IMG/VR virus record: IMGVR_UViG_3300045988_112739
Length of the DNA stretch: 64,000 nt
Reading direction: 5' to 3' (one strand)
Source of the DNA: a virus
Shown here: one piece after another, positions 14,660-63,263 of the stretch
How positions within the stretch are numbered: the stretch's first letter is position 1
Layout of the letters: every line of letters starts with the position of its first letter
Made by a program: the position numbers and the translations under genes
Notes under the pieces: generated by a model
The model's input: the letters and a program-made list of their open reading frames with translations, nothing else
The model's database searches: none
Told to the model about the DNA's origin: nothing

Positions 14660-15839
14660 AAACTATCTTGCCCTAGTAAAAACGGGTTATATGCTGGAAA
14701 AACCTTAGAGCTTTTATGCACTTACAGTATTTTGTATTTATTGTAATCGAAACAGTTAAAGGATTGGTTAATCAGCAGGCACGATAAGGTCAGCCTCAAC
14801 GACTATGGGAATATCCCAGTCATACATAAGTGATTATGTATGATAACCCCGTGAAAATGATATAGTCTGAACACTATAGAAATATAGTGAGATAAGCAGA
14901 AATGACTTATCATCTAGTAATTGTCGCATTAATATGAAAGGTGGTGATAAAGATTTCTAAGAAGAAGATTACAAAAGAAATGTTTGTAAATGAACTTGTA
15001 AGGTTGTATAATGAGTTTGGCAAAGTTAATATAAAAATATGGAATGAACACACTATATACAAAGGTTCTTGCTTTAATTGGTATTTGCACCAATATGGAA
15101 AGATTAGGACTTTATTAAACGAAGTTGGGATTACATACATAAACTACAATGAACTTACTGAGGAGCAAGTTCTTGAAAAAGCAAAGTGTATTTATCAAGA
15201 ATATGGATATATAAATAAAACCTTATGTGAACAAAACGGTTTATGGAGTTCGCCAGTTAGACATGTTTTTGGCAATTACAATAATTTATTTAAAGCTATT
15301 AATGCACCTATCAATATGTCTAGAGGTGTAACTAAAGACGAGCTTGTCAGCGATATCAAAGAGTTCATACAAAAATATCGGAGTTATTCAGCCGTTTTAT
15401 ATAGAAAATATGGGAAATATAGTTGTGCGATTGTTAATAAATATGGCGGTTGGGAAAATATACTTAATGAACTAGGGATGCGCTCTACAAGAAATAGTCA
15501 GCCAGAAAACTTTATAGAAACCTTTTTTGAACAAAATCAAGTTGAATTTGAAATACATAAAGGCTTTGAATGGCTTATATCTCCAGATGGGTATAAAATG
15601 TATGTAGACTTCTTTTTAACTAAATATAATTTGGTTATAGAGTATGACGGAGAGCAACATTATAAAATGGTAAAATATTTCCATAAAACACAAGAAAATT
15701 TTGAAAAGTGTTGTGAGCGAGACCGTCAAAAAGCTAAATTGTTAGAGGCACATGGTATAAAAATTTATAGAATAATATATAGCGACAATATATTATTTAA
15801 ACTTCAAGAATTATTAGAATTACTAGATTAACAAATTTG
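14660..15839 (+). mobile_element. group I intron with homing endonuclease ORF in dnaE
   Basis: P1 GGGUa/uGCCC (14656..14660 with 14669..14673). P10 UAUCU (14664..14668) pairs with exon AGAUA (15841..15845). caacgacta at 14797 and gatatagtc at 14859. Terminal G at 15839. The join gives LDCLG-LDNVGII in frame. Confidence 0.75.
14941..15831 (+). CDS. intron-encoded homing endonuclease, PD-(D/E)XK (Vsr/DUF559-like) with N-terminal homing-endonuclease-associated repeats
   Basis: C-terminal VDFFLTKYNLVIEYDGEQH...RDRQK. Four N-terminal repeats of the YGxxxxLLNEVG type. Located after the P7' core, in a peripheral loop. Confidence 0.65.
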   Translation: MVIKISKKKITKEMFVNELVRLYNEFGKVNIKIWNEHTIYKGSCFNWYLHQYGKIRTLLNEVGITYINYNELTEEQVLEKAKCIYQEYGYINKTLCEQNGLWSSPVRHVFGNYNNLFKAINAPINMSRGVTKDELVSDIKEFIQKYRSYSAVLYRKYGKYSCAIVNKYGGWENILNELGMRSTRNSQPENFIETFFEQNQVEFEIHKGFEWLISPDGYKMYVDFFLTKYNLVIEYDGEQHYKMVKYFHKTQENFEKCCERDRQKAKLLEAHGIKIYRIIYSDNILFKLQELLELLD

Positions 15840-17389
15840 TAGATAATGTCGGTATTATCAATAAAACGTGTGAACTTGCGGGTATAGACCGTATTAATCC
15901 TGATAACATTGATTTGGAAGACTGGGAAGTTTGGGACGATATTAGACAGGACACTACAGCGGTATTTCAGATGGAGTCTCCATATGCCGCTCAGACAATG
16001 AAACAAATATTTTCTGATAGTACCATAGCTAAAATAAGAAAAGCTATTCCTAATATCAAGATGTTGAAGTTAATGAGTTATGCAAACGCTCTTATCAGAC
16101 CCTGTGGCGCTTCTGTTAGAGAAGATTCTGTCAATGGTATAATTAAAAAAACTGGCATAAACGATATTGACGATTTGCTTGCACCAGAGCTAGGTAATTG
16201 TATTATTCAAGAGGACATCATGCTCTTCTTGATGAAATTCTGTGGTTTTGATTTGCCGAAGGCAGATTATGCTAGGAAATGCATTGCCAAGAAGCGCGGC
16301 ACAGAACAGTTAATGCCAGAGATTGAAGAAGGCTTTAATAGCAACGCAAAAGTAAAGTATAATTTATCAAATGAAAAAGCTGATGAAATTATAAAGCCTG
16401 TATTAAAATGCATATTAGATGCCACTAGATATGCGTTTAGTTGGAATCACTCTGATGCTTACAGCTTTATAGGATATGCTTGTGGATATCTTAGACATTA
16501 TTATCCTCTGGAATTCCTTACAACTTGTCTTAATGTATGGCAAGATAAAACGGAGAAAACCGCAATGGTTACTAGTAAAATAGCCGAAAGAGGATATAAG
16601 ATTGCTAATGCAAAATTTAGAATGTCTAGGGCAGAATATTTTTGTGATAAATCAACAGGCATAATTTATAAAGGAATAAAGTCTATTAAATACCTCAATG
16701 AAAATGTAGCAGAAATTCTATATTCTTTCAAGGATAATAAATATAATTCCTTTGTAGAACTGCTTTGCGATATCAGTAAAACGGCTATAAATTCAAGACA
16801 GGTAGGGGTTTTAATAGATATAGATTTCTTTGAAGAATTTGGAAATGCTAAACAATTAGCATTAATCTACAATATATTCAATATGTTTAAGCAAGGAAAT
16901 GCTAAACTCATCAAAAAGGAGAGGGTAGCTAATAACCCCATTCTCAATAATATAGTGGCAAGATATTCTAAAGAAACAGCAACAAACTATACACAGCTTG
17001 ATTGTAAAAATATATTATCAGAAGCAGAACAGTATATTATGTGTAGTATAACTGATGATTACCCTATAGGATATAAGATAAAAGTTCGCAAGGAATATTT
17101 AGGATATATTGATTACAAAACTAATAAGCCAGAAGATAGACCTAAAATTCTTATTCAAAGTTTAAAAAAGTGTATAGGTAAATTCGGTAAGGATGCTGGA
17201 AAGCCGTGGTGCTATATGTTTGATGGCTATAGCTTAGGCAGTGGTAAAGTGTCTACTTACAGTATTTTTGCTAAACAGTTTGAGAAAAATTCTTTTGCCG
17301 TTGATGATGTCATTTACATAGATGAATGGCATAGAAACAATAAAGGATATTTCTATATTGATAAATACAAAATATTGCCAAAAATTTAA
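15840..17389 (+). CDS. dnaE: DNA polymerase III alpha subunit, exon 2
   Basis: The frame is open from 15833 and has no proper start. Contains TTAVFQMES (the GVFQ.ES motif of Pol III alpha). Confidence 0.8.
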
Positions 17390-17410
17390 CAATATTTTTC
17401 TGAAAACGAC

Positions 17411-17439
17411 TTGACAAATTTCTCAAAATGTGATATAAT
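17411..17439 (+). promoter_or_regulatory. sigma70-type promoter P5
   Basis: aacgaCTTGACAaat, 17-nt spacer, TGtgaTATAAT. Confidence 0.75.
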
Positions 17440-17474
17440 AGTAGTGTACCTAAAAATGGTACACTACTATTTTT
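17439..17474 (+). terminator. intrinsic terminator immediately after or overlapping the P5 -10
   Basis: tagtagtgtacc-taaaaat-ggtacactacta 12-bp stem followed by ttttt. Confidence 0.55.
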
Positions 17475-17499
17475 AGAAATTATATAAGGAGTGATTTTA

Positions 17500-23166: not shown

Positions 23167-23176
23167 AGGAGGTTTT

Positions 23177-44737: not shown

Positions 44738-44770
44738 GTATCACCACTGTTTACTGCACAGTGGTGATAC
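44738..44770 (-). terminator. intrinsic terminator overlapping the tape measure stop codon
   Basis: Minus-sense GTATCACCACTGT-gcagtaa-ACAGTGGTGATAC followed by TTTTAATATTT. Confidence 0.6.
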
Positions 44771-47700
44771 CATTTTTGTTTTGTATCTTAGTAACAATTT
44801 CAGACCAGAAACTTTCAGCGTCAATGTTTTTGTCAAACTTAAATTCCATATCACCTGTAAAGGTATAGTTGTTTTTAACTTCTCCTGTGTTAGTAACGTT
44901 TGTTATCATATTAGTAGTTGGCTTAGTTTCTGCGAAAGATGTAGGTTTAAGTATTTCTGCATATTTGTCAAGGCTAGTCGCCAATGTGGTTACAGAAGTG
45001 CCTAATGCAGTCATAATAGACTTCCAGTCAAAAGCAAATCCGCTTTTCCCATTAGTAGCATAGCCACCAGAAATAAGATTTGCTTTTGCTTTGTTAAGTT
45101 CTTTTTGACTTTGAGCGTCCTCAAATCCTAAATTGATGTCAACCGCTTTACCATAACGACTACGGAAAGCTTGTTGTTCTTTATCACTTAGATTAAGTAA
45201 ATCTTTAGCACTTAATGTACTAGCATTTACTCCACGATATTGTGCAAGCCAACTTAAAGCAGATTTGACATCTCTTTGATTTTGTATTGTTTCAGGAATG
45301 TTACTGAAACTCTCTCCGTATTTCTCTAACCATTCTTTACTATCTTCTAAATCTTGTTTTCTATTTTCTTCAAGTTGTTGGTCATATTCCTGTTGTGCTT
45401 TCTTAATATCTTTCTTATTAGTAGTCCACTCAAATTGACCTGTTTCAGCATTGTATTCACGAACACTTCTTTGTGTCTTAGCTTTATTAAGAGCCTCAAG
45501 TTTTTCTTGTAAAGCAATTTGTCTTTGTTGAGCTTCATTCTTTTTATCAAGCAAATCTATCTCTTTATCTAAAGCATCAATTTCAAGCTGTGCCGCTGCA
45601 ACAATACCGTTGGCAATATCTTCATAGTATTCTACTTGTTTAGATAGTACAGTAGATATATCGGATAAAGCGTCCTCAACGGAATAAACAGATTTTTCTA
45701 TAGTATCTACTATACCATCAGCAGTATCTTCTGCTACTTCCCCTGTTGCTTCTAGCAAGTCTTTTATTGCACTAATAGAATCAACAACCTGTTGACCGCC
45801 AATTATTAGAGATGGATTCTTGGCAATTGTTTCATACCACGCTGTAGTGTCTAATGTGTTTAAATCAATAAAATCACTTATTGTTAATTTGCCCGTCAAT
45901 GCTTGCGCTTCCGTTAGCTTATTAAAATTGTTTAGTATTTCCTCTTTTGCCGCTGTAACTGTAGCAAAATTCTTTAAATCTATATGATACTGTTTGTTGA
46001 ATTTGTCCACTAATTCTTTATTACCTAAGATGGCGTTTTTATAAAAATCGCTACTATAGCTTAATTTTTCAATTTGTGCATTTTTGTAATTTGTTTTATC
46101 TTGTTCATATAACTCTTTAAATTTAGAAATAAGTTCTTGTCTAGTCATTTCTTTACGAAGATACCTGTCAATATATTCTGTTATAGCAGGATAAGCGGAT
46201 TTCATAGAATCGAGAGTATCTAATGTAATTTGACTGCTCTCTTGTCCTAATTCATGCATTAGACTATAAGCATCTTTCATACGAGATGTTACAACGTCTA
46301 ATCGAGAATCAAGCTCCTCGTCAAGATTGACGGAGGCTGTAGAAGACCCTTGGTCAAACTTATTTGCGAACTCTTCGATAATTTTAGGATAATCTTTTAA
46401 GTATTCTTGACATTCTTTTAGTATTTCTATATACCAGCTTGGAGCATTAGACATTGCTCCTCTCAGCTCTGGCTTTAAGTTGTTGTCCTCGTCAAAAAGC
46501 TCGGCAAGTTGATATTTTTCGGCATCGGCTCGTGTTTTAGAATATTTATTTTCTATTGCAGACTTTGCATCAATGTAATTAGTGTAATTTTTCAAATCAA
46601 TTCCGTATTTGTTTTTAAATTCTTCCACAAAGCTGGAATTCTCGTTAAGCCAACTAGAATAATACTCATCTGTTTTCATATACTTCTTTTGCTGATAATC
46701 ATAAAAATTATCAATATCGTTATTATAGAACTGCTTAAATGCTTTTAATAACTCATCGTTATCAATCATACCCAAACGATATTTCTCAACAATAGAAGCC
46801 ATACCAGAATACTGGTCTACCATACTACTAAGAATATCTTCGCTTATAGTACTATCTCCATATCCAGCAACTTCCGCTATAAGTTCACCAGCAGATTTTA
46901 TAGCTGTGACATATTCGTTGGCAGTAGTTTTAACACCATCAACAGCATTGCTAACAATCTGTTTTTCAAGTTCTAATAGTTTGTTTTGGTTTGTTATTTC
47001 TAATCTTTGTTCATCAGTAATATCTTTTTGTTTTACCATTGTGGCATTATTAATATTCAACTGCTCATCTAAGGTGTCTAACATAGACTGTACATAATCG
47101 TTACGAACAGCCTCTATTTTTGCAATATTATCCAATCCACCCTGAGTAAGATTTGTTATATCTACACCAGCAGTTTTTAACTCAAACAGTTCCTCTATAT
47201 CAGGAGTTGTCCCCTCTGAAAGAGCTTTTATTGCATTGTTAAGTTTTTCTATGTTGTCTACTGCGTTAGTAATTTGTTTTGCATCTGTAGGGAATCCGGC
47301 AATTAAATCCGTTGCTGTAATCGTTTCGGTTTTTTGATAAGTATATCCTAATAGTTCAAGGGAATCCACTATTTCAGAGATACTCATATCAATATCGTTT
47401 TTGTCTTTTAAACTTTCTCTAATTCCACCAAGTAAATCAGTAATTTCTTTATCTTGTGTTTGCTTAATATCTGTAGCAAACATACCTTTTATTTTTTCAG
47501 ACAACCCGCTACTTTCTACTGCTTTATCAATTAGTATATTAGCTTGTGCTTTTTGTTGAGATTTTTCAAATTCTTGTCCTGCTTCTGTAATACTTCTGCC
47601 AACAAGTTCTGCAATTCTTTCGTTGCTAGTTAATCCTGTTGCAGTAGATAATGTTTGCAATAAATTATCTGCAACGGTCTTTAAATCATTGTATGCTTTC

Positions 47701-49430
47701 TCATCAACTTCTCCAGAACCTGCCAAAGTGTTCATTTGAGAAGTAATTTCTGTATACTGGTCTAAAACTTCCCTTACAGTTTGACCCGCATAATCTCCCT
47801 CTGTAAACGTTTTAGACAACGAGTCTATCGCTATATTTTTTGCATTGTCAAGTATTTGTTTGTTTTGCTGATATTCAGTATCTTTTTCTATTGCTTTGAT
47901 TTCTTGTGAAAGCACGTCTCTAAAACTTTGATAGGCTTCTTGGTTTTCTTTCGTAATTTCTCCACTAGAAATTTTCTCGTCAATAATTGTTAATAATTGT
48001 TTCATATTTTCAACAGTTTGAAAATATGATTCTGACCCAAACATAAGAGCCTCGTTTGCCAAATAGACCTTGCCACCAAATCCGCTAATTTCTGATTGTA
48101 AATCATTTATTACATCAAAATATTTTCTGGCAGCACCACTGTCTCCAATTTGTGTGACTGCTCCGTGAAGCTTACCAGTGGTAATGTCTCCGTAATTCCA
48201 AAAGCCGATGCTCTTTTCGTAGTCAAAAGCCGTTGCTACTTCATCGGAAATATCAGTCCACGTTTCACTCGCACGTTGCTGTGAAATTTGTTTAAGTGTA
48301 GCCAAAGTTGTTTCAAGTTTGCCATTTACTACATCAATTCCGTCTGCTTCTGAACCGTAAGTCTCAACTATTTGGTCTCTACTAGTTAATAATTCTTCTG
48401 CCTTTTCGTTTTTAAGAGACGTATCAGATATAGAATCATATTCTTTTTTGAGGTTTTTATATTTTTCTATAAGCTCATCTATAGAAGAAGATGTATCATT
48501 ATAGGTGTTTATGGTTTCAATCGCGTTATCACGAGCCTGTTCTGCGGCTTGACGAGCACTCATAATGGCTGTCGCTATGCCTGAAATTGCAATAGATACA
48601 ATTCCCAAAACTAAATTCAACGTTGACATAGCCGTTGTCAATCCTTGTGTCGTAAATTGCATTGTCTTTTGTTTTGCTATTGCCCCAGCTAAACTTATAG
48701 TTTCCTGCTGGTTGAGTTGTATATTATTTTTTTTTGCCATTGCAAAAAGTATTGCCGCTATTTTACCTTGCTTTTGACTTTCTGTTAAACTGTTGTTTGA
48801 TATTATAGCCTGCATATTAGCAGCAGTTTGCGCATCTGTGTTTAACAACAGTTGTGCTTGTGCAGTTGTCAACCCCATATCAACTAATTTTTGAGCTTTC
48901 TTTTCTGCATTTAAAGCCTTGCTGCTTACAATAACTGCAATCTGTTGTTTTTCGTACGCACTTAATGTTTCCCCGTTTTTAGAGATTATTGTATCTAATG
49001 TAGCCCAGCTACTTTTTAATCCTGTAATTGTTTGTCTTAAATTTTTTGTAGGAAGGACTACGTTGTTTAACAAACCTTTAAATCCTTTGCTTAAACTAGA
49101 TACTAACGCAGGTATTCCTTTAAGAGCCTTAAAAGCAAGAAAAAACCCTAAAACATTTTGCAATACAGGTGCTTTTGCTGATAAAGCATCTAATACACTA
49201 AGCATTCCACTCAATAATGAAACTCCAATTTTAATAGTTCCACTTTGGTTAAGACCCTGTATAAATTGTTCCCATTGTACAGTTAATTCGTTTATTTTAG
49301 CTTCAAGGCTACTCATATAGTGAGTATACTTCTGAGCAGATGTACCAGAAGCTTCCATTGTTTTGTTTGTATATTCAAGAACTTTGTCGTAGTTCTGCAT
49401 TACTGCAATAAAGGTATTTCTTTGATGTAC
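44751..49430 (-). CDS. tail tape measure protein, exon 3
   Basis: Begins VHQRNTFIAVMQNYDK.., the usual continuation after the ..IAG motif of TP901-type TMPs. The track start MKVTEL (49448) is interpreted as intron 3' sequence. Confidence 0.7.
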   Translation of the reverse strand, partial: VHQRNTFIAVMQNYDKVLEYTNKTMEASGTSAQKYTHYMSSLEAKINELTVQWEQFIQGLNQSGTIKIGVSLLSGMLSVLDALSAKAPVLQNVLGFFLAFKALKGIPALVSSLSKGFKGLLNNVVLPTKNLRQTITGLKSSWATLDTIISKNGETLSAYEKQQIAVIVSSKALNAEKKAQKLVDMGLTTAQAQLLLNTDAQTAANMQAIISNNSLTESQKQGKIAAILFAMAKKNNIQLNQQETISLAGAIAKQKTMQFTTQGLTTAMSTLNLVLGIVSIAISGIATAIMSARQAAEQARDNAIETINTYNDTSSSIDELIEKYKNLKKEYDSISDTSLKNEKAEELLTSRDQIVETYGSEADGIDVVNGKLETTLATLKQISQQRASETWTDISDEVATAFDYEKSIGFWNYGDITTGKLHGAVTQIGDSGAARKYFDVINDLQSEISGFGGKVYLANEALMFGSESYFQTVENMKQLLTIIDEKISSGEITKENQEAYQSFRDVLSQEIKAIEKDTEYQQNKQILDNAKNIAIDSLSKTFTEGDYAGQTVREVLDQYTEITSQMNTLAGSGEVDEKAYNDLKTVADNLLQTLSTATGLTSNERIAELVGRSITEAGQEFEKSQQKAQANILIDKAVESSGLSEKIKGMFATDIKQTQDKEITDLLGGIRESLKDKNDIDMSISEIVDSLELLGYTYQKTETITATDLIAGFPTDAKQITNAVDNIEKLNNAIKALSEGTTPDIEELFELKTAGVDITNLTQGGLDNIAKIEAVRNDYVQSMLDTLDEQLNINNATMVKQKDITDEQRLEITNQNKLLELEKQIVSNAVDGVKTTANEYVTAIKSAGELIAEVAGYGDSTISEDILSSMVDQYSGMASIVEKYRLGMIDNDELLKAFKQFYNNDIDNFYDYQQKKYMKTDEYYSSWLNENSSFVEEFKNKYGIDLKNYTNYIDAKSAIENKYSKTRADAEKYQLAELFDEDNNLKPELRGAMSNAPSWYIEILKECQEYLKDYPKIIEEFANKFDQGSSTASVNLDEELDSRLDVVTSRMKDAYSLMHELGQESSQITLDTLDSMKSAYPAITEYIDRYLRKEMTRQELISKFKELYEQDKTNYKNAQIEKLSYSSDFYKNAILGNKELVDKFNKQYHIDLKNFATVTAAKEEILNNFNKLTEAQALTGKLTISDFIDLNTLDTTAWYETIAKNPSLIIGGQQVVDSISAIKDLLEATGEVAEDTADGIVDTIEKSVYSVEDALSDISTVLSKQVEYYEDIANGIVAAAQLEIDALDKEIDLLDKKNEAQQRQIALQEKLEALNKAKTQRSVREYNAETGQFEWTTNKKDIKKAQQEYDQQLEENRKQDLEDSKEWLEKYGESFSNIPETIQNQRDVKSALSWLAQYRGVNASTLSAKDLLNLSDKEQQAFRSRYGKAVDINLGFEDAQSQKELNKAKANLISGGYATNGKSGFAFDWKSIMTALGTSVTTLATSLDKYAEILKPTSFAETKPTTNMITNVTNTGEVKNNYTFTGDMEFKFDKNIDAESFWSEIVTKIQNKNGITTVQ

Positions 49431-49720
49431 CAATTCTGTTACTTTCACCTAAAAGGTTACTGACTATGTATTAAACATAGCGGTCGAAGTTCTTCCAAAA
49501 GTGTCTTTACACTTGACCTCAACTCTATATATTTCTATATAGTTCAGACTGTATTTTCATCTTTACAGATGTTATCCTCTGCGGTCGTTACGATGAGATT
49601 ATAAATAATCTTTATCTCGGTATTGTCTACAGCATTATCTGTTTAGAGTTTCACCGATATAGGATAATTCTGATATCTAAAAGATATCCATATATTTCTA
49701 TATGTTCGGGCATACATTTT
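49431..49720 (-). ncRNA. group I intron B in the tape measure gene (290 nt, no ORF)
   Basis: P1 GGGUa/uGCCC (49724..49720 with 49712..49708). P10 AUGUAU (49717..49712) pairs with exon GUACAU (49430..49425). The P7'/P9 segment auacagucugaacuauauagaaauauauag is nearly identical to the dnaE intron. Terminal G at 49431. Confidence 0.65.
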
Positions 49721-50282
49721 ACCCGCTATTGCAGTCGCAATTTGTGCCTGTTCTACGGTATCAAATTCATTCCATCTACGCCCAACATCATCTAGAACAT
49801 CTTCAAGATTTCTAAATTCTGTTGCACTATTTCTAAGAGTAATATTATAACGTTTAAGAACCTTTTCGGAATCGTTAATAGCTTCTCCCTCGTCATCAAT
49901 ACTCTTACCAGCTTTTACATTCTGCAAACGAGAGAACATTGACTTAAATGCCTGACCTACTGTTTCTGCTGACAATCTAGTGGTTTCACTTGCTGTAGTG
50001 AGCATACCCACCATTTTATCAAAGCTAACGCCAGCAGCACTAGCAAATGAAGCAGAATACTGGAATGCAGTAGCAAGTTCTTCTGTACTTGTTGCCGCAA
50101 TAAGGTCGGCATTAACAAGTTTATCTACTACTTCTGCCGCATCGTCTGCTTCTAATTTATATGAGTTTAAAATTGCAGTTAATTTTTCTGTAGCTTCGCT
50201 TGATTCCATTGCACCAAGCGTTGCCATCATAGTAGATGCTTTAAGTAATTTAGCAGTTTCCTCTGCTGTCTTACCCTGTCTC
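49721..50282 (-). CDS. tail tape measure protein, exon 2 (TP901-type core)
   Basis: RQGKTAEETAKLL...ATSTEELATAFQYSASFASAAGVS...TVEQAQIATAIAG. It has no start of its own. The track ORF 49643..50230 runs into intron B. Confidence 0.7.
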
Positions 50283-50622
50283 CTGTTATATTAACTAGAG
50301 TTCGTCACACTCTAATCTTATAGTTTCCTATAAGCATAGACTATATCTTCAATCTAAAAAAGATTGTCCCCCACTTCGATTTAAGGGGTTCTCACCCACG
50401 CCATATGACGATTGCGCCCTACTTCTATTGTCCACAAGGACTTACGAATAGTCGTTGAACCTTTCTCCTAATAGGAGACTTGGTTGCGGATTGTCCAATA
50501 TTGATACTTTTTACTATACCTTAATAATTAGTTAAGCCATTATAATATTGCTATTATAATTTAGTATATCAATCTCTAAGGAGTTTCCCGCAGTTAAAGG
50601 GATTTATAATGACCTAATTAAA
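50283..50622 (-). ncRNA. group I intron C in the tape measure gene (about 340 nt, no ORF)
   Basis: Minus-sense AAGAUAUAGUC (50349..50339), CAACGACUA (50458..50450) and GGACAAUCCGCA (50496..50485). P1 GGCUu/AGGUC has a U.G pair. The join gives SGSVEW-L-RQGKTAEE in frame. Boundaries are good to a few nt. Confidence 0.65.
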
Positions 50623-53429
50623 AGCCATTCAACAGACCCAGAACTCACAATTTCTGTTGTAGTTCCAAGTTCTTTTGCAAGTTCAGAATAACTAGCTAAA
50701 GTTTTCCTAACACTAGTATCAGTCTGATTAGTTACCATTTGTACTTCTGTCATGGTCTTATCGAATTCTTTAGTTTTTTCGATAACGTTTGACAAGCCTT
50801 GTCTCATTTCCATGAACAGTCTATTAAATATATTAAAACTAAAAGCAACAGCCGCAGTACGTTGGAAACTTGCTTTTAATCTTTCTAACAGTGTCAGTTG
50901 CTTACTATTACTCTGATTACTACGAGTTACATTATCTGCCATTTTAGCATTGGCTTCCGCTACCATATTTGTATAAGTTGAAGTTTTAGCTAATGCATCA
51001 TTGTCTTTAAGTAGTGCATTATACTGCGCTTGTAACCTATCAACAACTGCTTGTTGCTGATTTACAGTAGCATCATTATATGCTCTTGCTTTATACTCTT
51101 GAAGTGTAGATTGTGCTTTCTTCAAATTAGTATAAGCAGTAATCATTTTATTAAGGGTTGCCAAATCACTTTCTTGCTTTGCTTTTATAGTATCGTCTTT
51201 TATAGTGGCGTTAGCTTCTGCTACTACGGTTCTTAACTTTTCATATTGTTCTCTTGTAATACCTAAAGTGGCATTGAAACTCTTCAAAGACATTTGTCCA
51301 CTTGAAAAATCAATTAAATTTCCAAGTCCACTAGTGCCAATTATAGCAGACATCTTATCTTGTACATTTTGATAAGCGGCAGTGTATATACCTTTGTCGC
51401 CCTTGCCAGCCTTATTAGTAAGTTTGCCTTGTTCTCTGCGTAATTCTACATATTCTTGCAAAGATTTAGTTGCTTTAGAATAAACTTCGTTTTCTTGCTT
51501 TTGACGTTGAATATCTTTTTCTTTACTATTTGCTACTCTCTGTAATGTCTGATTATATTCAATATAATTGTTTAGTAATTCTCTTACTCTGTTTGTTAAT
51601 AACTGAGTGTTTTCAGCACTTCTTAATTCTGTATTATATTCAGATAGTTTGGCTTGTGCGATTTTTTGATACTCTGTGGCTTCTTCTATATTTCCTTTTT
51701 GCATAGCAGAACGAGATTTTTGCCAAGCCTGATACCTTTCATTTTCTAATCTTGTTAATTTTGTCACTAAGTTTTGCTGTTGTACGTTTGTATCGCTAGA
51801 CGTAATTCTATTATATGTATCTGTTGGTATGCGACCATTATAAGATTCTATCTGAGTATTTACTTGATTAAGCCTGTTCTGTGTAGTTACAAATTTTTGA
51901 CTACCCGTTGTCTGTCCAGAAAGTCTACTTTCTAATTTAGCCCTTTCTGATACTAAATTTGTAAGCTCCTGCTCTAATTGAATTTGTTCTCTTATAACGT
52001 TATCTTCGTTTGCTCTTGTTTGAATAGCCCGTTGAATGTTTTGATTACGTTCCTGTAATTGCCGATTAAGAAAAGAAATACTTTCTGGGTCTTCGGCGTT
52101 CCCGTAACCGCTAAAAATAGGGTCTCTACCGCCAGCCACCCTACCAGCATTTAATGCGCTTTTCTGAATATTGTTTATTTCAAGCTGATATCTTATTTTG
52201 TTTTGTAAAAGATTATCTTCGTTGGCTTCTGCCTCGTATAATTTTAATTTCAAATCATACTCTTCTGTGAGTAGTGTTTTATATCTTTCTACCTGGCTGA
52301 CCTCATCCACATACGTTCTGCTCAAACTAGATGTCCCACCACGGCTTAACATCATATCATTAAGTGCTTTAGGGTTTACATTTTGTGGCGTTTTCCCAAA
52401 TTTATTTGTAATTGTCTGTATATCCTCAGGAGATAAAGTTATATTTGCACTTTCTCGTCCGCTTATTCTTAATCTAGCGTTTGCTTTTACTAAATTGCCT
52501 GTATCGTCAAATACGCCAGTAATCTGCCTAAACAAATTGCTATAGTTTTTTTTAAATTCGTCAAACCTTTTTCTTGCGTTGATAATTGCGGCATCCGCTT
52601 TTTGAGACGCATCTGCTGATATTTTTAATCCCTCTGCTGTATTTCTATTAAATTCAGACAATTTGGCTCTAGGGTCTTTACTTGCTATAGAGGAATTGTC
52701 ACTTTCCCCATTATTGCCGCCGCCAGACGGTGAATTTGTAGATGGATTGCCAGCGTTTTGAGCCGCACCACTTAAAGCATTAGCCGCGTTGCTAACCGCT
52801 TGTGCCGCAGTATTTAATGTGGTAGAAGCCCCACTTATACTTTGGGAAGTGTTTCCTAAATTAGCATTAGCTGTACCTAAAGCAGAAGCACTATTACCTA
52901 TATTAGTAGCACTAGTATTTAAACTAGAAGAAGCAGAATTAAGGTTCTGAACAGTGGTGTTAAGATTATCAACAGTCTGCATTAATGTTTTATTTAGAGC
53001 GTCTGCGTTGGTTGATGTACTCTTCTTATCAGCAGGAGTTGTTTTTGTCTTTTGAGCTGTAATTACTTTTTCCACTTCTTTAGTAATTGTGGCTAGGTCA
53101 GAAGACTTATATCCTGTGCCGCCTATCGTAGCTCTTCCAGCTTTTGTGTTATAAGTAAACTTTAGACTTTGGTCTGTAATCTGCCTATTGATATCCGTAA
53201 CGAATTCTGCAAAGTTCTGATAGTCTTTCTTAGATTGTTCAATCGCCTTTTGTATTGGTTCTCTAAACAGACTTTCTCCTATATTTTTAGTTCCAGAATA
53301 TTTATTTAAAGCATCAAAAAGCTTCATAATATCATTAGGAAACTTTGATACTAAATTCTGAAATTGCTGTTCAAATGTACTTGTATCTAATCCTAATTGA
53401 ACCTTGGCAATTTCTATTTTTTCTGCCAT
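50623..53429 (-). CDS. tail tape measure protein, exon 1
   Basis: Coiled-coil, Ser/Asn/Ala-rich N-terminal part ending ..ELAKELGTTTEIVSSGSVEW. The listed C-terminal LLIRSL-stop is read-through into the intron. Confidence 0.7.
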
Positions 53430-54832: not shown

Positions 54833-55870
54833 TTACAAATCGCCAAGTTGACTTTGCTTAACTTCTTTAATTCCGTTTTCATCAAAATAATCAGCAAAAC
54901 TATCCATAGCTTCGTTATCATCGTAAATCGAAATCATCGCACCGCCACTAGCTTTATTCCAACCTATAAGTTCAATTATTACAGGGTCAGGCAGTTTTTT
55001 AGCCCTTAACTGAGAAATTAAGAAGTGTCTAAGGCTATGGAAATAGAAATCGCAACCCAGTACACTCTCAATTGTTCTAGCCCAGACACTAGCAGTGCTA
55101 ATTTGTGCCTGACGATAACCCTCTGGGGTTCTGGAAACAAACAGCCACTCGCTATCTATGCCTAACCGCTTACGCTCTTCCATCCATAAATCATAATATC
55201 TCTTAAACTGTTGTATAAAAACATATTTGTACAATAGTTTGCCACGACTACCTCTACCCTTAGTGGTTATTTTCTCTGGCGTTTTATATAGACAACCAAA
55301 AACAATATTGTCATCTGTGAACCAATTAGCCTTAAACCTTAATAACTCTGCTTTTCTAGCGCCACTAGCACAAGCCAAAGCCATAAAGCAAGCAGCTTGA
55401 TATTTGCCAAGCTCAACTAATTTTTCAAGACAAGTATCTACTTGCTCTTGTGTTAATACGGTCTTTTCTCTTACTGGTTCAATAGCCACCGTTTCTATCT
55501 TCTTGACATTATTACGATATCCCTCGTAATCTTCGTCTAATATATTTTCTATGAAATTACTAAACGAACTTATAATTGCTCTGACTGTTTTTAACCTATT
55601 AGGAGAGGCATCAAGCTCGTTTGTCATATAACTAAAGAAGCGAACAAACTCTCTCTTCTTAATATCTACAAACACTTTGTTTGCATTGTGTTCTACGTTC
55701 CAACAGAAAAACAATTTAAGCACCGCTGTATACTGATAAACAGTTTGTGCAGATTTATCAGTACTTATCTTATACTCCCTAAACTCATTCAGCAAATCTT
55801 TGTTTTCTTGGTCTACTTGCGCCCAAAGTTCTTCTGAAAAAGTGGAAGTTCTTTTTGTAGTTCTACTCAT
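54833..55870 (-). CDS. tyrosine recombinase / integrase (XerC/D-like)
   Basis: ASGARKAELLRF (Arg box), HSLRHFLIS (HxxR) and GGAMISIYDD (catalytic Tyr region). Confidence 0.75.
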   Translation of the reverse strand: MSRTTKRTSTFSEELWAQVDQENKDLLNEFREYKISTDKSAQTVYQYTAVLKLFFCWNVEHNANKVFVDIKKREFVRFFSYMTNELDASPNRLKTVRAIISSFSNFIENILDEDYEGYRNNVKKIETVAIEPVREKTVLTQEQVDTCLEKLVELGKYQAACFMALACASGARKAELLRFKANWFTDDNIVFGCLYKTPEKITTKGRGSRGKLLYKYVFIQQFKRYYDLWMEERKRLGIDSEWLFVSRTPEGYRQAQISTASVWARTIESVLGCDFYFHSLRHFLISQLRAKKLPDPVIIELIGWNKASGGAMISIYDDNEAMDSFADYFDENGIKEVKQSQLGDL

Positions 55871-55877
55871 TCAAAAA

Positions 55878-56387
55878 TCATTCCCTTTCACTCAGTGCCC
55901 ATAATAATTTATTGACATCATATTTATAGTTTTTAATCTTTTTAGTTTTTTCAATTACAATACCACCATTATCAATTACATCTTTTTCATTGATTGATTT
56001 CTTAGTAGTTCTTGATAAAAAAGAATTAAATTTGTCAATACTCATAAACCAAGTTTTACTGTTTCTGAAATCAAATACAAATCCAGCAGTGACTTTGTTG
56101 TATTTTTGAGCATCTGTAAGACCATCTATTTGATGTTTTTTAATCATTTTACTAGTATCTTTTTTATCGAATTGTATTGAAAAACTTGTTCCGCTTGTGC
56201 TTTTTAATTCAAAGCAGAACAGATTAATTCCATTAAACATTAATATATCATATGGATTTCTTAGTGTAAACCTAGTGGCAACACTATCCTGTCCGAATGA
56301 TGTTGCACTGTCCTTTAGTCGCAAATAAAATATATCACTCGGAACAGATTTTCTAAAATTACTTTCGAAAATCTTACCTTCGTTCAT
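55878..56387 (-). CDS. RecU-like Holliday junction resolvase
   Basis: PYDILMF...LFCFELKST...IKKHQIDGL...AGFVFDF follows the RecU pattern (D...E.K...hQ). Confidence 0.55.
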   Translation of the reverse strand: MNEGKIFESNFRKSVPSDIFYLRLKDSATSFGQDSVATRFTLRNPYDILMFNGINLFCFELKSTSGTSFSIQFDKKDTSKMIKKHQIDGLTDAQKYNKVTAGFVFDFRNSKTWFMSIDKFNSFLSRTTKKSINEKDVIDNGGIVIEKTKKIKNYKYDVNKLLWALSERE

Positions 56388-56389
56388 AA

Positions 56390-56827
56390 TCACATTTCCT
56401 TTATTATATCCTGTAACGCCGAAATATTTTTTAATATATTAAGGCTTTTTCCGTAGTCAACGTTTTGTGAAGAAATAAGTTTATTATATGACACAGATAA
56501 CTCTTCTACGTTCTTTTCCAATATTTTCTTAGTACCTCCAAAGTGAGTTTCGGAAGATAATGATATTGTATCTATCTTACCAAAAATATTTCTTAAAAAT
56601 AACTCCGCATCATCAATGACATATATGGTCTTATCTTTTCTATTTTTAACGTCTTCCCACAATGCAAAACTTACATCATTTTTAGATATGCCAAGTTCTA
56701 ACATTTTATTAACCTTGTTGTAGTATTCTGATTTATCTCGACAGAGAATTGTGTATCCGTTCTCGTAAGCACATTTAATAATTTCTTCTGTCTTACCAGT
56801 ACCACGACTTCTATAAATTATATTCAT
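56390..56827 (-). CDS. small P-loop NTPase
   Basis: ATG 56827 follows aaggaga. Walker A SRGTGKTEE and Walker B-like IYVIDDAE. Confidence 0.5.
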   Translation of the reverse strand: MNIIYRSRGTGKTEEIIKCAYENGYTILCRDKSEYYNKVNKMLELGISKNDVSFALWEDVKNRKDKTIYVIDDAELFLRNIFGKIDTISLSSETHFGGTKKILEKNVEELSVSYNKLISSQNVDYGKSLNILKNISALQDIIKEM

Positions 56828-57028
56828 AATATTCTCCTTGATGGTTCGGTCATCACCCATATATTTTGGCAGTCTATTTATCTTCATGCAGACCAAACAG
56901 ACATATCAGGCTCAACTAACTTAATGTTGAGCCACTTTCACAGAAATTCAAAATTTTGAACCCTTATAAATAAAGGATTTTGAGCTTGATTTTGTGAATA
57001 AAATTTAATTTAATATTTTTTAATAAAA

Positions 57029-57547
57029 TTACTCGATTTTCTTTTCCACAGTTACTATAGTATCATTATGCCACCCACCATGTGCCACCAATAAAATCTC
57101 TACTATCTCAAATCCATATTTCTTACCTATTCCACCAGAATTCCAACAACAAGTTACTACATAACCATCTTTCTTCATTACCCTGCCTATTTGCTCCTTT
57201 TGTTTCGACCAATAACTTGACTGTGTGGTTTCCATATTAACTGTCTGACCCATCTTTTTATAGCACTCTGAAACCTGTCTTGGACTATAAGGAGCGTCAA
57301 ACAGAACCATATCGCAAGATTTATCATCAAACAACTTAAAAAACTCCAATGAATCTAAATGATAATCTGTATCATATGCAGTATCTAAGTCATTTGTAAT
57401 CGTACCTAATTTACTTGAATTTGCAAAAGGGTCTAATATAATATGCTTCTCAGGCAACTTAGCTATGTACTTATTTATTATCTCTTCAATAGGCTTAATA
57501 CTAAAAGTATTACTATTTGGCATACACCACACTCTATTAATTTCCAT
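57029..57547 (-). CDS. small DNA methyltransferase (DAPY motif)
   Basis: IILDPFANSS (motif I-like) and VLFDAPYSPRQ (motif IV variant). Confidence 0.55.
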   Translation of the reverse strand: MEINRVWCMPNSNTFSIKPIEEIINKYIAKLPEKHIILDPFANSSKLGTITNDLDTAYDTDYHLDSLEFFKLFDDKSCDMVLFDAPYSPRQVSECYKKMGQTVNMETTQSSYWSKQKEQIGRVMKKDGYVVTCCWNSGGIGKKYGFEIVEILLVAHGGWHNDTIVTVEKKIE

Positions 57548-58140: not shown

Positions 58141-58797
58141 TCAGGTTGTCTCGTCCTCAGTATATACCTTGAAGGTATAAAGAGTTCTGTCAAGACAGCC
58201 CTTAACAAATTCAAGACCAAGGTTCTGTACAACAGGCTCACCATCAGCAGAAACGTCAAAGTTCCAGTTACCGTCAACCTGTGCCTGACCCTCAATCTCG
58301 CAAGGGAATAACTCACCAGTACATACGTCCTTTGCAATACCATAAGCGGTAGCAAGAACAACCGGAGGAATACCGTCAGAGTTTACGGTGATAGTCTGTG
58401 CATTAGTATCAGACTTGAAGCTATATGCACAAGCAATCATGTCTCCAGCGGTGGGAGCATCTGTGCCAAAAGTAATCTCCTTAGTACCAGAGTCATAAGA
58501 GAAAGTCTCTGTTCCAGTAGCAGTAGCAGCTTGTTTATAAGTCTTAGAATAAGTGCCATCAGCACCTACAATATAAACAAATTTGATTTCGCTACCAGCA
58601 GTACCAGTAGCAGTAAACTTAGTCTTGTACTTACCATCACTACCTGCCTCAATTACATCATAATATGTAATAGGGGTAGAACCAGTAACAACCTCAGTAC
58701 CATTCTGAATAGCCAGTACCTCAGTATTAAATGTAGCAACAGTTACATTCATAGTGGCTCTACGAGAGTGTGAGAAGCCACCGCCGATATATACGTC
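58141..58797 (-). CDS. probable major tail (tube) protein, exon 3
   Basis: The frame is open from 58797 (DVYIGGGFSHSRRAT) before the listed Met. Beta-rich, Thr/Gly-rich sequence. The function call is positional. Confidence 0.55.
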   Translation of the reverse strand, partial: DVYIGGGFSHSRRATMNVTVATFNTEVLAIQNGTEVVTGSTPITYYDVIEAGSDGKYKTKFTATGTAGSEIKFVYIVGADGTYSKTYKQAATATGTETFSYDSGTKEITFGTDAPTAGDMIACAYSFKSDTNAQTITVNSDGIPPVVLATAYGIAKDVCTGELFPCEIEGQAQVDGNWNFDVSADGEPVVQNLGLEFVKGCLDRTLYTFKVYTEDETT

Positions 58798-59165
58798 CTT
58801 GGTATTTATATGTATTCGCTAAATACATACCATACAACAAATGTATGCTCATGCTTTCACATGAGAGTAGGTCATATCACAGACTTATTAAAAGTCTTTC
58901 CCCATTTCACAGTCGCTTGACTGTTACGCACCGCCGTGCTGACCGTCGAACCTTACTTGAATAATTTATTCAAGTCTTGGCGGCTGATTGTCCATTATTA
59001 CAGTACTTAGGCTTGCACCATATACTATCCACATTATTCTTTCTACTTTCGTCACATTCACGCTTGTTAATTAAAACTACGTTGTAGTTAATGTGGCTCT
59101 TAGGAGTTTCCAGCCATTAAAGGAATTTTTCGATACTTTTCACAAAGTAAAGGGAACGTTATATT
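58798..59165 (-). ncRNA. group I intron E2 (368 nt, no ORF)
   Basis: P1 GGAAU/GUUCC with a terminal U.G pair. GGCUGGAAACUCCUAAGAG...GGACAAUCAGCC (P4/P5 type). Variant P7 GGUCA/UGACC. Terminal G at 58798. Confidence 0.6.
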
Positions 59166-59186
59166 ATTCCTGCACCCAATATCTTC
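59166..59186 (-). CDS. probable major tail protein, 21-nt micro-exon (EDIGCRN)
   Basis: This is the only segment left between the 3' end of intron E1 and the 5' end of intron E2. It keeps exons 1 and 3 in frame. Confidence 0.5.
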
Positions 59187-59544
59187 CAATAGGTCGTTAA
59201 TCTATTGCGTTTTTAAAACAGCTCTATATTTCTATAGACGTTGAGACTATATCTTCATACATTTTATGTATGCACTCCATTTCGATTTAAAGGGTTCTCA
59301 CCTACGCACTTGCGCCCTACTCTTATTGCAATTAACCCATTGCTAAAAAAGATAGTCGTTGAACCTTTCTCCTAATAGGAGACTTGGTTGCGGATTATCC
59401 AATACCAATACTTATTACCATACCTTAGTAGTTAATTAAGCCATTACTATATTACTATAATAACTTGGTATATTGGTCTCTAAGGAGTTTCCCGCAATTA
59501 AAAGTGTTTTCAAATACCAATCAGTATTTGGAGCAGTATTATTT
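59187..59544 (-). ncRNA. group I intron E1 (358 nt, no ORF)
   Basis: P1 GGGUa/uGCUC. Minus-sense AAGAUAUAGUC (59255..59245), CAACGACUA (59362..59354) and GCGGGAAACUCCUUAGAG. P9 cuauagaaauauag. Terminal G at 59187. Confidence 0.65.
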
Positions 59545-59694
59545 ACCCGTGGGATATACCATTTCCATTGTATTTTCAAGAGAAGTTGTCTTACAGTTAG
59601 TAAGATATGCAATAATGCTCTTGTCAACAGGCTTTCTTAAAAGAATCTCAAATGCCTGCTGCATAGAGAACTGTTTAGGTGTAGCTAAAGCCAT
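59545..59694 (-). CDS. probable major tail protein, exon 1
   Basis: ATG 59694 follows ggag. MALATPKQFSMQQAFEILL...EMVYPTG, 50 codons ending in GGU. Confidence 0.55.
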
Positions 59695-59723
59695 AAATTT
59701 TCAACTCCATTCATAACATTAGA

Positions 59724-60557: not shown

Positions 60558-61221
60558 TTTGATTCTTGCTATGAAAATTTCTAGGCAGATAAGATATTTT
60601 AGGGATTTCGACTGCATTTTTGTCAATTTCTTCAACAGGATAAACAAGTTTACTATTAATATTTTGGTTCTTAGGCAATCCACCACAGTCAATGTTGCTA
60701 TTAACACTAACCTCATAAATCATCTGCAAACCGTAGAAATAGTTACTATAATCTCTTGGTTGAAAACCACGAGAGTATGGCGCACCAGTAATAGGCAAAT
60801 CTGTTATCTTGCTATTAAGTATTTTGTCTATTTCAGACATAATAAGGTAAGGGCGATATCCCTCTTTTACTTTCCAACATTTTAAATGAGAAATAATATC
60901 TATCAAAATATTTACTCTCCTAAACCCAGTATTTTCATCAACATCATAGCCACCACTTAAATTTACTAAAATAAATGTTTGCTGTTTAGTTTCTGCTTCT
61001 GGTATTTTAGGAAGAGGAAATACATTTTTATAAAAAAGAACGTCTGTATTCTTTATATCAGGTTGAGAATATACCGAATAATTTAAATCAGGAAAATCGT
61101 TCATATTATCAGAACCACTTTCGGGATAATAATAGAGCAATTTGCATATATTTTGATTTCTCAAAATCTTTTCTCCGATTATATTATCTACAATTTTAGA
61201 CAACTCTGAATAATATGGCAT
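60550..61221 (-). CDS. hypothetical structural-module protein
   Basis: ORF translationally coupled to its neighbours. Confidence 0.45.
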   Translation of the reverse strand: MPYYSELSKIVDNIIGEKILRNQNICKLLYYYPESGSDNMNDFPDLNYSVYSQPDIKNTDVLFYKNVFPLPKIPEAETKQQTFILVNLSGGYDVDENTGFRRVNILIDIISHLKCWKVKEGYRPYLIMSEIDKILNSKITDLPITGAPYSRGFQPRDYSNYFYGLQMIYEVSVNSNIDCGGLPKNQNINSKLVYPVEEIDKNAVEIPKISYLPRNFHSKNQNE

Positions 61222-62477: not shown

Positions 62478-62791
62478 ATGTTTCTCCCTTTCTTAACAGC
62501 ATCAATGCAATAGAATATATTAGACTTCATTTCTTTATGATTGATTGTTGATAAATTTTCATTTATCCCGTTTAGTGTACTCACAAGAGAAATGAAGTTT
62601 TCAGCTTCTATTAAGTCATTAAACCCTTGAAATTCAAGAATTAAATGCTCAATATATGTAGATAACTGCTCATAGTTATCTGTAGACTTTTCATATATTT
62701 TTAAGCATGCGAATATTTTTCCAATAATTTTATTAAAATAACTATCTATTTCTTCTTCGCTCAAATTTTTAAAATAATCCTTACAAACCAT
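62474..62791 (-). CDS. hypothetical head-tail joining module protein
   Basis: ATG 62791 (MVCKDYF..) overlaps the stop of connector exon 2. The upstream part of the track ORF is exon 2 read in another frame. Confidence 0.45.
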   Translation of the reverse strand: MVCKDYFKNLSEEEIDSYFNKIIGKIFACLKIYEKSTDNYEQLSTYIEHLILEFQGFNDLIEAENFISLVSTLNGINENLSTINHKEMKSNIFYCIDAVKKGRNI

Positions 62792-62927
62792 AGTCACCCA
62801 CCGCCCACTGTTTGAAATTAGTGTTTGCGAGACCATAATCTGTCATATCCTGAGAAGCTATTTCTCTTAGCTTATCTGCATATTCTCTTTTCTCTTTAAG
62901 GTTTTTCTCTTCGGAATAATGCTTAAA
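62781..62927 (-). CDS. head-tail connector-like protein, exon 2
   Basis: FKHYSEEKNLKEKREYADKL...QWAVGDYGL-stop. It has no start codon of its own. Confidence 0.55.
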   Translation of the reverse strand, partial: FKHYSEEKNLKEKREYADKLREIASQDMTDYGLANTNFKQWAVGDYGL

Positions 62928-63263
62928 CTTTTCATTACTTTTATATTTAGCTTATCATATAAAAGACCGTTTGGTTTTCTCATAATTTCTTATGAGCATA
63001 GACTATATCTTTACCCTGTTACGGGTATTCCCCACTTCGGAACGCTTGTTCCTAACGGTATCTCAACCGATAGTCGTTGAGGGTTTTCCTTTTCGGAACT
63101 TCCCTGCTGATTGTCCAATCTTATAACTTTTCAAACATTTACATATAAGCGTATTTCATCTTTCTGCTTTAGTATATAAGCTCTAAGGAGTTTCCAGCAT
63201 TTCAAGGAATTTATGTATAAACTTCCGTATTATACAAGACTTTAAACAACGTTGTGTTCTCAA
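62928..63263 (-). ncRNA. group I intron F (336 nt, no ORF)
   Basis: P1 GAUuu/AAGUC with a U.G pair at the splice site. Minus-sense AAGAUAUAGUC (63011..63001) and CAACGACUA (63080..63072). P9 cucauaagaaauuaugag. Terminal G at 62928. Exons are 312 + 147 nt, in frame. Confidence 0.6.

Follow-up and report, generated by a model that had tools for sequence, protein, structure and literature searches.

Group I Introns in Phage Genes

In prophages of the Bacillus cereus group, group I introns occupy three sites of the tape-measure protein (TMP) gene, with at most two introns per gene, and also the tail-tube gene and terminase genes (Tourasse & Kolstø 2008, PMC2504315). The secondary accounts in PMC10136302 and PMC11878797 describe orf142 of phage Twort, a tail-tube gene, as having three IA2 introns, a 23-nt exon and exon skipping (Landthaler & Shub 1999), and the single Siophivirus genome analysed holds six introns in two genes (PMC11878797). 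Vsr-like (DUF559) homing endonucleases are known from group I introns and from fractured phage genes (Dassa et al. 2009, PMC2677866), and phrog_559 occurs in terminase introns of Bastillevirinae (PMC11878797). The locus considered here is a 64,000-nucleotide (nt) stretch of viral DNA (IMG/VR record IMGVR_UViG_3300045988_112739), referred to at its full length as the window. Its sequence makes it very probable that six group I introns interrupt dnaE (one intron), the TMP gene (two, TMP-A and TMP-B), a YomU-type tail-tube gene (two, E1 and E2) and a gene of the phrog_3853 family (one), that they remove themselves, and that the dnaE intron is mobile.

The window shares with the B. cereus-group prophages IA-type introns, at most two per gene, inside the conserved portion of a siphovirus TMP, a tail-tube intron, the predominance of endonuclease-less introns, a sporadic distribution, co-conversion tracts, and stop codons at or near the intron start (PMC2504315). 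It differs from them in being an SPβ-like gut phage, in having other host-gene sequences, and in holding six introns within 64 kb, dnaE included. With Twort orf142, as far as the accounts cited above describe it, the tube gene has in common the crowding of introns into a short tail-tube stretch, a micro-exon between them, and a potential for exon skipping; Twort, however, is a myovirus whose tube protein family may differ, the micro-exon here measures 10 nt after revision, and in relatives of the tube gene as many as three introns fall within 25 nt of coding sequence, with four sites across alleles. The dnaE intron resembles the Vsr-like systems in its phrog_559 and DUF559 matches, in its E-x-D-x-E-x-H motif, and in the endonuclease being an intron passenger in a phage DNA-metabolism gene. 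In contrast to the recA introns, where the open reading frame (ORF) lies in the P1 loop, its ORF lies in a 3' P9.2-type loop, and the host gene is dnaE.

A first-pass annotation of the window, made from the letters alone, had called multiple introns in structural genes unusual. This was overstated, since introns in TMP, tail-tube and terminase genes (PMC2504315), the six-intron Siophivirus genome and, to the extent that PMC10136302 and PMC11878797 relate it, the three-intron Twort tube gene are published. Four features appear to go beyond the literature found in a limited search: the use of dnaE as a host, the dense packing of introns in the tube gene, the missing P8, and a 5' exon that does not end in U. 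That limited search returned no published group I intron in dnaE, and nothing helpful on natural introns without P8 or on splice sites lacking the U; as evidence of novelty this is weak.

Detection of the Six Introns

Each of the six inserts matched the Rfam group I intron model RF00028 over its full length (model positions 1-253) in local scans:

62979-63257, minus strand: intron of the phrog_3853 gene, 83.0 bits, E 1.6e-21
50317-50659, minus strand: TMP-A, 73.8 bits
59222-59570, minus strand: tube E1, 73.2 bits
14603-14889, plus strand: dnaE intron, 48.8 bits, E 6e-11
49525-49730, minus strand: TMP-B, 38.0 bits, E 7e-8
58848-59175, minus strand: tube E2, 33.9 bits, E 6.5e-7

The proposal that the inserts are group I introns is confirmed by these matches, as a prediction from covariance models. 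Three of them exceed the Rfam gathering score of 50 bits, and the other three lie under it (E 6e-11 to 6.5e-7). When the whole window was scanned, the gathering mode caught two of the six and the E-value mode four; the intron of the phrog_3853 gene, which has the best score of all, was missed in both and required scans of sub-regions. The Rfam speed filters thus lose real introns at this locus.

The core motifs on which the first-pass annotation had relied are present where it had placed them, and far more often than expected by chance: TAGTCGTTGA occurs four times (0.07 expected) and GACTATATCTT, with at most one mismatch, eight times (2.05 expected), counts that no shuffle attained. A covariance model of the 3' core (R1, covering P3'-P8-J8/7-P7'-P9), built here and run unfiltered on both strands, recovered all five training copies and independently found the J8/7-P7'-P9 part of the dnaE intron. 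It revealed no convincing seventh intron in the window; a weak candidate at 4530-4586 on the plus strand (17.5 bits, E 0.04) is situated within the intact ORF 4348-4980 and is probably a chance match.

At the splice sites first proposed, a T precedes and a G ends each of the six inserts. The terminal (omega) G is kept in all six with the boundaries revised below, and a U closes the 5' exon wherever alleles or homologs fix the boundary of the dnaE, TMP-A, TMP-B, tube-E1 and phrog_3853-gene introns. An in-frame stop codon occurs 0-26 codons into each intron, and empty alleles align without extra residues, on which grounds an intein or split intein was rejected. As first reported, only the dnaE insert contains an ORF of endonuclease size. 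An IStron was likewise discarded, as no IS200/IS605-type transposase was present, five introns being without an ORF and the sixth encoding a Vsr-like endonuclease.

Host Genes and Splice Junctions

Three of the interrupted genes comprise the following parts:

12970..14659, plus strand: dnaE exon 1, ending in T (Pfam PHP at residues 26-193, DNA_pol3_alpha at 327-563)
14660..15839, plus strand: dnaE group I intron, 1180 nt (core at about 14660-14935, no P8; endonuclease ORF in the 3' loop)
15840..17389, plus strand: dnaE exon 2 (finger, HhH and C-terminal domains; DNA_pol3_finger begins 5 residues past the junction)
50623..53429, minus strand: tape-measure exon 1 (spliced ORF of 2682 aa; PhageMin_Tail domain, E 9e-31)
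50283..50622, minus strand: TMP intron A, 340 nt (precise empty site in relative L002; tube E1 is a close paralog)
49721..50282, minus strand: tape-measure exon 2 (spliced ORF)
49431..49720, minus strand: TMP intron B, 290 nt (core compact, P7.1/P7.2 missing; R1 model 55 bits)
44751..49430, minus strand: tape-measure exon 3 (spliced ORF)
63264..63575, minus strand: phrog_3853 gene exon 1, in the head-tail region (phrog_3853 E 1.7e-27, one stretch across the junction)
62928..63263, minus strand: phrog_3853-gene intron, 336 nt (precise empty site with identical flanks in relative L003)
62781..62927, minus strand: phrog_3853 gene exon 2 (spliced ORF; gapless homolog alignment)

Removal of the inserts at the sites first proposed leads to four continuous ORFs, and Pfam and PHROG profiles run across the splice junctions. 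In the spliced DnaE, the PHP, Pol III alpha NTPase, finger and HhH domains follow in order, with the junction between the NTPase and finger domains. Both TMP introns lie in or beside PhageMin_Tail, the sole conserved domain of this 2682-aa protein. The identification of dnaE, tape measure and tail tube was upheld; the 'connector-like' label given to the fourth gene was a positional guess, as this gene matches only phrog_3853, a family without an assigned function.

The splice sites had been chosen from RNA pairing, and 9 of the 12 boundaries are confirmed by sequence comparison with empty-site alleles and uninterrupted homologs, at the nucleotide level for the dnaE, phrog_3853-gene and TMP-A introns and at the protein level for TMP-B. 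A relative with about 90-94% nucleotide identity, IMGVR_UViG_3300045988_131220, is devoid of the first three of these introns and is collinear, without gaps, with the ligated exons of the window at exactly the proposed junctions. The TMP-A junction also aligns gaplessly with L002 (EWL^RQG, the caret marking the junction), and about 30 nt of the exon upstream of it (window 50623-50650) are strongly diverged from this relative. No empty TMP-B allele occurs among close relatives; its junction (IAG^VHQ) is gapless against the uninterrupted TMPs of phages Perkons and Stills. The product of the phrog_3853 gene aligns gaplessly with an uninterrupted homolog in L001 (MT835481.1).

L001 is itself an unannotated human-gut phage whose TMP gene is split at both of the positions used in the window. 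Its site A (12117-12473) has a recognisable 3' core (39 bits), and its site B (about 13060-14334) is occupied by 1.24 kb of ORF-containing DNA without any match to the 3'-core model.

The dnaE Intron and Its Endonuclease

The minimum-free-energy fold of the dnaE intron has a z-score of -3.1. An empty allele in L010 (site sequence ...CTTGGGCTTGACAACGTAGG...) is collinear with the ligated exons, without gaps, and about 50 more distant dnaE relatives are uninterrupted. L051 and L052, whose dnaE has 50% amino-acid identity, carry a homologous intron and endonuclease at the identical codon, and a signature search retrieved, in addition to these two, relatives in other genes (the L064 type and L066).

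Comparison with the L051, L064 and L066 homologs indicates that P7.1 is invariant and that P1, P7.2, P9 and P9.1 covary, as does P3, which takes four forms (ACGGG/CCCGU, GCGAG/CUCGC, UCGGG/CCCGA and GCGGG/CCCGC). P8 is absent from the dnaE intron and its L051/L052 orthologs, in which P3' runs directly into GAAA(A)U-GAUAUAGUC, whereas L064 and L066 keep a P8 hairpin ahead of AAU-GAUAUAGUC. The ORF of about 0.9 kb is looped out by a covarying long-range helix:

14912..14922, plus strand: 5' strand of the ORF-closing, P9.2-like helix (11-bp perfect pairing with 15818-15828)
15818..15828, plus strand: 3' strand of this helix, 11 nt upstream of the 3' splice site
14941..15831, plus strand: Vsr-like (DUF559/phrog_559) putative homing endonuclease ORF, true start codon uncertain

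The equivalent helix of L051 (2880-2891 with 3976-3987) has 12 perfect base pairs of wholly different sequence, and in both introns its end lies 11-14 nt from the 3' splice site. As the helices stay paired despite sequence divergence, the RNA would appear to be under selection, with or without P8.

The endonuclease ORF matches phrog_559 (E 2e-17) and phrog_9084 (E 4e-17), marginally Pfam DUF559 (20.9 bits, cutoff 20.6) and weakly HNH_repeat, and shares the motif IEYDGEQHY with its homolog in the L051 intron. A strong Shine-Dalgarno-like sequence, AAAGGTGGTGA, conserved with L051, stands ahead of the ORF (window 14936-14960); no ATG, GTG or TTG follows it at normal spacing, and the listed GTG start overlaps the Shine-Dalgarno-like sequence itself. 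In L051, this sequence is followed by a 9-codon ORF and then by the long endonuclease ORF starting from TTG.

Nine differences between the filled and empty dnaE alleles, all synonymous, lie within about 26 nt of the site, with about one in the rest of the 80 nt compared (window 14633-14659 and 15840-15853 versus L010 4182-4222). Together with the diverged patch upstream of TMP-A, this cluster looks like the trace of co-conversion during homing or of selection for endonuclease-resistant sites. The identical codon in 50%-identical dnaE genes, with mostly empty relatives, would be a classic homing signature, cleavage remaining putative. The dnaE intron would then be a mobile unit, with the endonuclease housed in a helix-closed loop, which probably spreads through the cutting of an intron-less dnaE allele followed by recombinational repair; this mobility is suggested by the scattered occurrence of the intron, by its presence at one and the same site of diverged genes and by the synonymous cluster. 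The five introns without an ORF would be passengers, which presumably persist since precise loss is rare, and may spread by recombination between co-infecting relatives.

As Vsr-like endonucleases fracture phage DnaE genes in metagenomes (PMC2677866), and as the ORF at 15914-17389 has a TTG start, dnaE could instead be read as a fractured gene, with a free-standing endonuclease, with or without split-intein halves, and two polypeptides that reassemble. This is hardly credible here: a group I core precedes the endonuclease ORF and a covarying helix closes its loop, the gapless empty allele leaves no intein halves, and some conserved residues of the finger domain precede the first codon at which exon 2 could be started, no in-frame start codon occurring ahead of 15914. 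A mobile intron in a single dnaE gene is retained as the preferred interpretation.

Two further insertions were seen near or in dnaE of relatives. In L010, about 1.6 kb of extra DNA (899-2503) separates the upstream ORF from the dnaE start and is absent from the window at 12953-12955, and in L053 an insert of about 1 kb (2980-4001) lies elsewhere in dnaE, at about residues 15-23 of a 235-aa query, a hint that dnaE has a second intron site.

The Tube Gene and Its Revised Boundaries

For the tube gene, three of the boundaries first proposed (the 3' end of E1 and both ends of E2) are probably wrong, judging from an allele series and from protein homologs. The revised gene structure, referred to as model B, is as follows:

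59545..59694, minus strand: tube (YomU family) exon 1 (PF27173; phrog_2729)
59177..59544, minus strand: tube intron E1, 368 nt, 3' end revised (previously ended at 59187)
59167..59176, minus strand: tube micro-exon GGTGCAGGAA, 10 nt (previously 21 nt, 59166-59186)
58797..59166, minus strand: tube intron E2, 370 nt, both ends moved by 1 nt (R1 model 70 bits)
58141..58796, minus strand: tube exon 3, start revised by 1 nt from the allele series

Different alleles combine the introns differently: E1+E2 in the window, E2+E3 in L075 (60-1460), E1+E3 in L074 (1-1160), E1+E2+E3 in L073 (1240-2510) and E0+E1+E3 in L003 (4180-6040). L075, which has no E1, reads CCA ACA GGT GGC GCA GGA A[T AAT ATA ACG TTC CC...], and this fixes the frame entering E2. 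Directly after E1, L074 (without E2) reads GGT GCA GGC AAC GTA TAT ATC and L003 reads GGT GCA GGC AAT GTG TAC ATA GGA, and the uninterrupted L071 has GGT AAC GTA TAT. Taken together, these alleles place the end of E1 10 nt downstream of the site first proposed (...GAUAUUG^GGUGCAGG), the 3' exon after E1 being fixed as GGUGCAGG... by L075, L003 and L074; a 4-bp P10 (GGUG/UACU, read from the sequence) is possible only with this revised site. E2 would then correspond to U-AAUAUAACG...ACCAAGG, ending in AGG, between GGAA and ACGUAUAU, in line with the empty allele of L074 (GGTGCAGGCAACGTATAT) and with the filled alleles of L073, L075 and the window (GGAA[TAAT...AAGG]ACGTAT).

The resulting micro-exon of 10 nt (GGUGCAGGAA) restores the conserved YPTGGAGNVYIG motif, which model B shares with all 18 uninterrupted YomU homologs compared (YPTGG(A/R)GNVYIG). 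The junctions of model B read ...CCCACGGGT^GGTGCAGGAA^ACGTATATATC (the start of the last exon also being given as ACGTATAT), those first proposed ...CCCACGGGT^GAAGATATTGGGTGCAGGAAT^GACGTATAT, and that of exon skipping ...CCCACGGGT^GACGTATAT. Restoration of the frame, claimed for all six introns, is borne out by the four continuous ORFs but is powerless to choose here, as five tube splice models are all in frame. The 271-aa product of model B scores best of the five against the uninterrupted homolog P0001 (1183).

The junctions first proposed (E1 59544-59187, a 21-nt micro-exon, E2 59165-58798) would insert four residues in the tube protein. They offer a U before the 5' site of E2 (P1 GGAAU/GUUCC) and a terminal G while keeping the frame, and the Rfam alignment likewise sets the splice-site U of E2 there. 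They are unlikely to be right, however, as their product (YPTG-EDIGCRND-VYIG) is four residues longer, is without the G-x-G-N present in 18 of 18 homologs, and has the lowest score of the five models (1147). L003 and L074, moreover, read GGT GCA GGC AAY GT. after E1, and L075 fixes the frame of E2. Canonical removal of E2, with the U and the terminal G, leaves 2 additional nt and is thus not frame-neutral by itself, yet alleles with varied intron sets exist; an offset of +4 in E3, which would rescue canonical E2 in L075, would break L074.

Under model B, the allele series puts the exon end one nucleotide upstream of the U.G-compatible site, after A, and the U able to pair with the guide GUUCC becomes the first nucleotide of E2. 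The closest relative of E2 is intron E0 of L003 (72% identity over 193 aligned nt, with the same guide sequence), which repeats this pattern at another site, ATGGAA[TAAAC...TTAGG]ATGG, where canonical splicing would make GAA UGA. E3 is bounded by GGAG^CAAUGG...AAAAG^GC, and its sole candidate U is an A in L073.

The locus may thus break two textbook rules, with the 5' exons of E2, E0 and E3 ending in A or G and with a functional P8-less dnaE ribozyme in two lineages, and may in addition form the most crowded group I hotspot described, with tube micro-exons of 10-18 nt and four sites within about 50 nt. This stronger reading is put forward tentatively, as a possibility against which we lean.

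Alternative splicing of the tube transcript, through skipping of the micro-exon or the use of several 3' sites, could give more than one in-frame isoform. The five in-frame models, exon skipping included, are compatible with this, and exon skipping is documented for SIOphi and for the Twort tail-tube gene with its 23-nt exon, as related in PMC10136302 and PMC11878797. It is nevertheless doubtful in the present case: the skipped or alternative products lose nearly invariant residues of the family, and the isoforms are predicted from sequence only. Model B, with a single 10-nt micro-exon, remains the preferred structure.

Several other features of this gene were recorded. Across alleles, it constitutes an intron hotspot, with four sites (E0-E3) within about 50 nt of coding sequence; L073 has three introns parted by exons of 10 and 15 nt, and in L003, which has E0, E1 and E3, one exon is 18 nt long. 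HNH endonuclease ORFs occur in certain copies of E2 (L075) and E3 (L003, L074) and are absent from the copies of the window. E2 (window 59150-59166) and E0 (L003 4226-4245) share the guide GUUCC, follow GGAA, start with U and end in AGG; their presence at two places of one gene could be accounted for by ectopic transposition, through reverse splicing for instance. A P7-signature search of IMG/VR returned no further copies of tube E2.

RNA Structure, Relatedness and Weight of the Evidence

Five of the introns resemble subgroup IA: between P7 and P3' they carry an insert of 37-75 nt, folded into one or two hairpins (P7.1/P7.2). TMP-B has just 8 nt there and does not show this mark of the subgroup. 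P8, with all 6 pairs covarying, is found in five introns, the dnaE intron being the one without it. When 12 distinct copies of the 3' core were aligned, pairing was kept in 91.9% of the P8 and P9 cells, versus 66.7% in shuffles and at most 56% in register slides, with double-sided changes in 6/6 P8 pairs and 3/7 P9 pairs, pair counts that are biased upward because the alignment was fitted to the model. Read from the sequence, P7 of E2 (GGUCA/UGACC) differs from that of the others (GACUA/UAGUC) by three compensated pairs.

The first-pass annotation had grouped the six as one family. The shared P1 and P9 features are as it described, but overall similarity is limited and the family holds only loosely at the sequence level. 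TMP-A and tube E1 are the only clear paralogs, nearly full-length (75% identity over 298 nt, E 6e-56), the phrog_3853-gene intron shows moderate similarity to TMP-A, E1 and the dnaE core, and TMP-B and tube E2 have just short core stretches in common with the rest. Relatedness was taken from local alignments, as global pairwise identity was uninformative (65% in a shuffled control), and a whole-intron MAFFT alignment, which mis-registered TMP-B and tube E2, was not used for structure.

Outside the window, pieces of the introns match, with 70-92% identity, those of SPβ bnrdF, kayviruses, Clostridium phage c-st, Enterocloster phages and a Thomasclavelia phage TMP, and on this basis they belong to a large Firmicute-phage pool of group I introns rather than to a private family. 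Among the SPβ bnrdE/bnrdF introns, the bnrdF region is 92% identical over 49 nt to a core segment of TMP-A, and the kayvirus, c-st/D-1873 and Enterocloster phage introns are 70-80% identical to the P3-P6 half of tube E2. The host genes and P1 guide sequences differ from those of the SPβ, kayvirus and c-st introns, however, and just parts of the introns align. Two of the relatives are unannotated: one in phiIPLA-RODI (L091, 52646-54980), with a nuclease gene, just past the kayvirus sheath gene, and one in Thomasclavelia phage TR-TP1 (L092, 24719-24984), which interrupts a TMP gene ahead of a DUF2726/HNH endonuclease. Neither the phiIPLA-RODI nor the TR-TP1 record contains curated splice joins.

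In the interpretation favoured here, each transcribed intron would fold into a P3-P9 catalytic core and excise itself by two guanosine-dependent transesterifications, giving an intact DnaE of 1079 aa, a TMP of 2682 aa, a tube protein of 271 aa (model B) and a 152-aa protein. Some points weigh against it. Splicing is a prediction from the sequence, half of the introns (48.8, 38.0 and 33.9 bits) are under the Rfam gathering threshold, and the covariation counts lean towards the model. As P8 is a core helix, the self-splicing competence of the dnaE intron is uncertain, and a protein cofactor may be required. Finally, under model B the 5' exon of E2 ends in A and not in the near-universal U. This could mean that the E2-type ribozymes cleave at an atypical 5' site, that certain alleles do not function, or that splicing follows more than one pattern.

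The low scores of three cores, the lack of P8 in one and the lack of endonuclease genes in five could also be expected if the inserts were remains of degenerate introns, the phage being defective or a prophage remnant and its four genes simply broken. Such decay is very improbable, given that compensatory changes keep the helices, that the exons are intact and conserved right up to the junctions, that the same arrangement recurs in independent metagenomes, and that intron-bearing tube alleles are abundant among database clusters. Six introns able to leave their four host genes functional remain the preferred reading.

The Phage

As part of the same explanation, the window very probably belongs to an SPβ-like siphovirus of gut Firmicutes. 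PF27173 (YomU_Tube), the SPβ tail-tube family, was found in 120 of the 120 tube homologs listed and in the exon-3 ORF of the same phage; the tube gene also matches phrog_2729, and YonD_N, YomX_C, YomW and YomV domains occur on the genes upstream of it. PF27173 and these SPβ-type neighbours support both the tail-tube assignment and the SPβ-like character of the phage. The nearest relatives of its DnaE in the genome database come from fecal Clostridia, Lachnospiraceae and Bacilli metagenome-assembled genomes, with about 50% identity. An identical 418-aa protein of this phage is present on at least nine metagenome contigs, with the same split gene calls in the three shown. The samples underlying ERZ28579284, SRR21858454 and ERR321480 are among those containing the phage. 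Megablast against phage genomes yielded no close relative of the window, matching only fragments of intron cores, and the endonuclease, tube and phrog_3853-gene proteins had no significant sequence match in the PDB.

Between the tube and tape-measure genes (54833-57547, minus strand) lie a tyrosine-recombinase-like gene (phrog_1, Phage_integrase), whose position there is kept in relatives, and a DNA methyltransferase gene. A RAGATH-18 motif (RF03064) was detected at 8445-8507 on the plus strand (60.3 bits, gathering score 44.9, E 1.9e-9), inside a 221-nt gap separating the ORFs 7212-8390 and 8612-9370.

Significance

These results would extend group I introns to an SPβ-like lineage of gut phages and to dnaE, and indicate that standard annotation, and even the default filters of Rfam, miss most of these introns. 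The allele series, in which each intron is present in some relatives and absent from others, offers a system for studying intron gain and loss and co-conversion, and also how ribozymes crowded around 10-18-nt exons escape mis-splicing. If they hold true at the RNA level, the P8-less core and the non-U 5' site would be natural variants for the study of ribozyme mechanism, and may be useful for engineering compact self-splicing or circularising RNAs.

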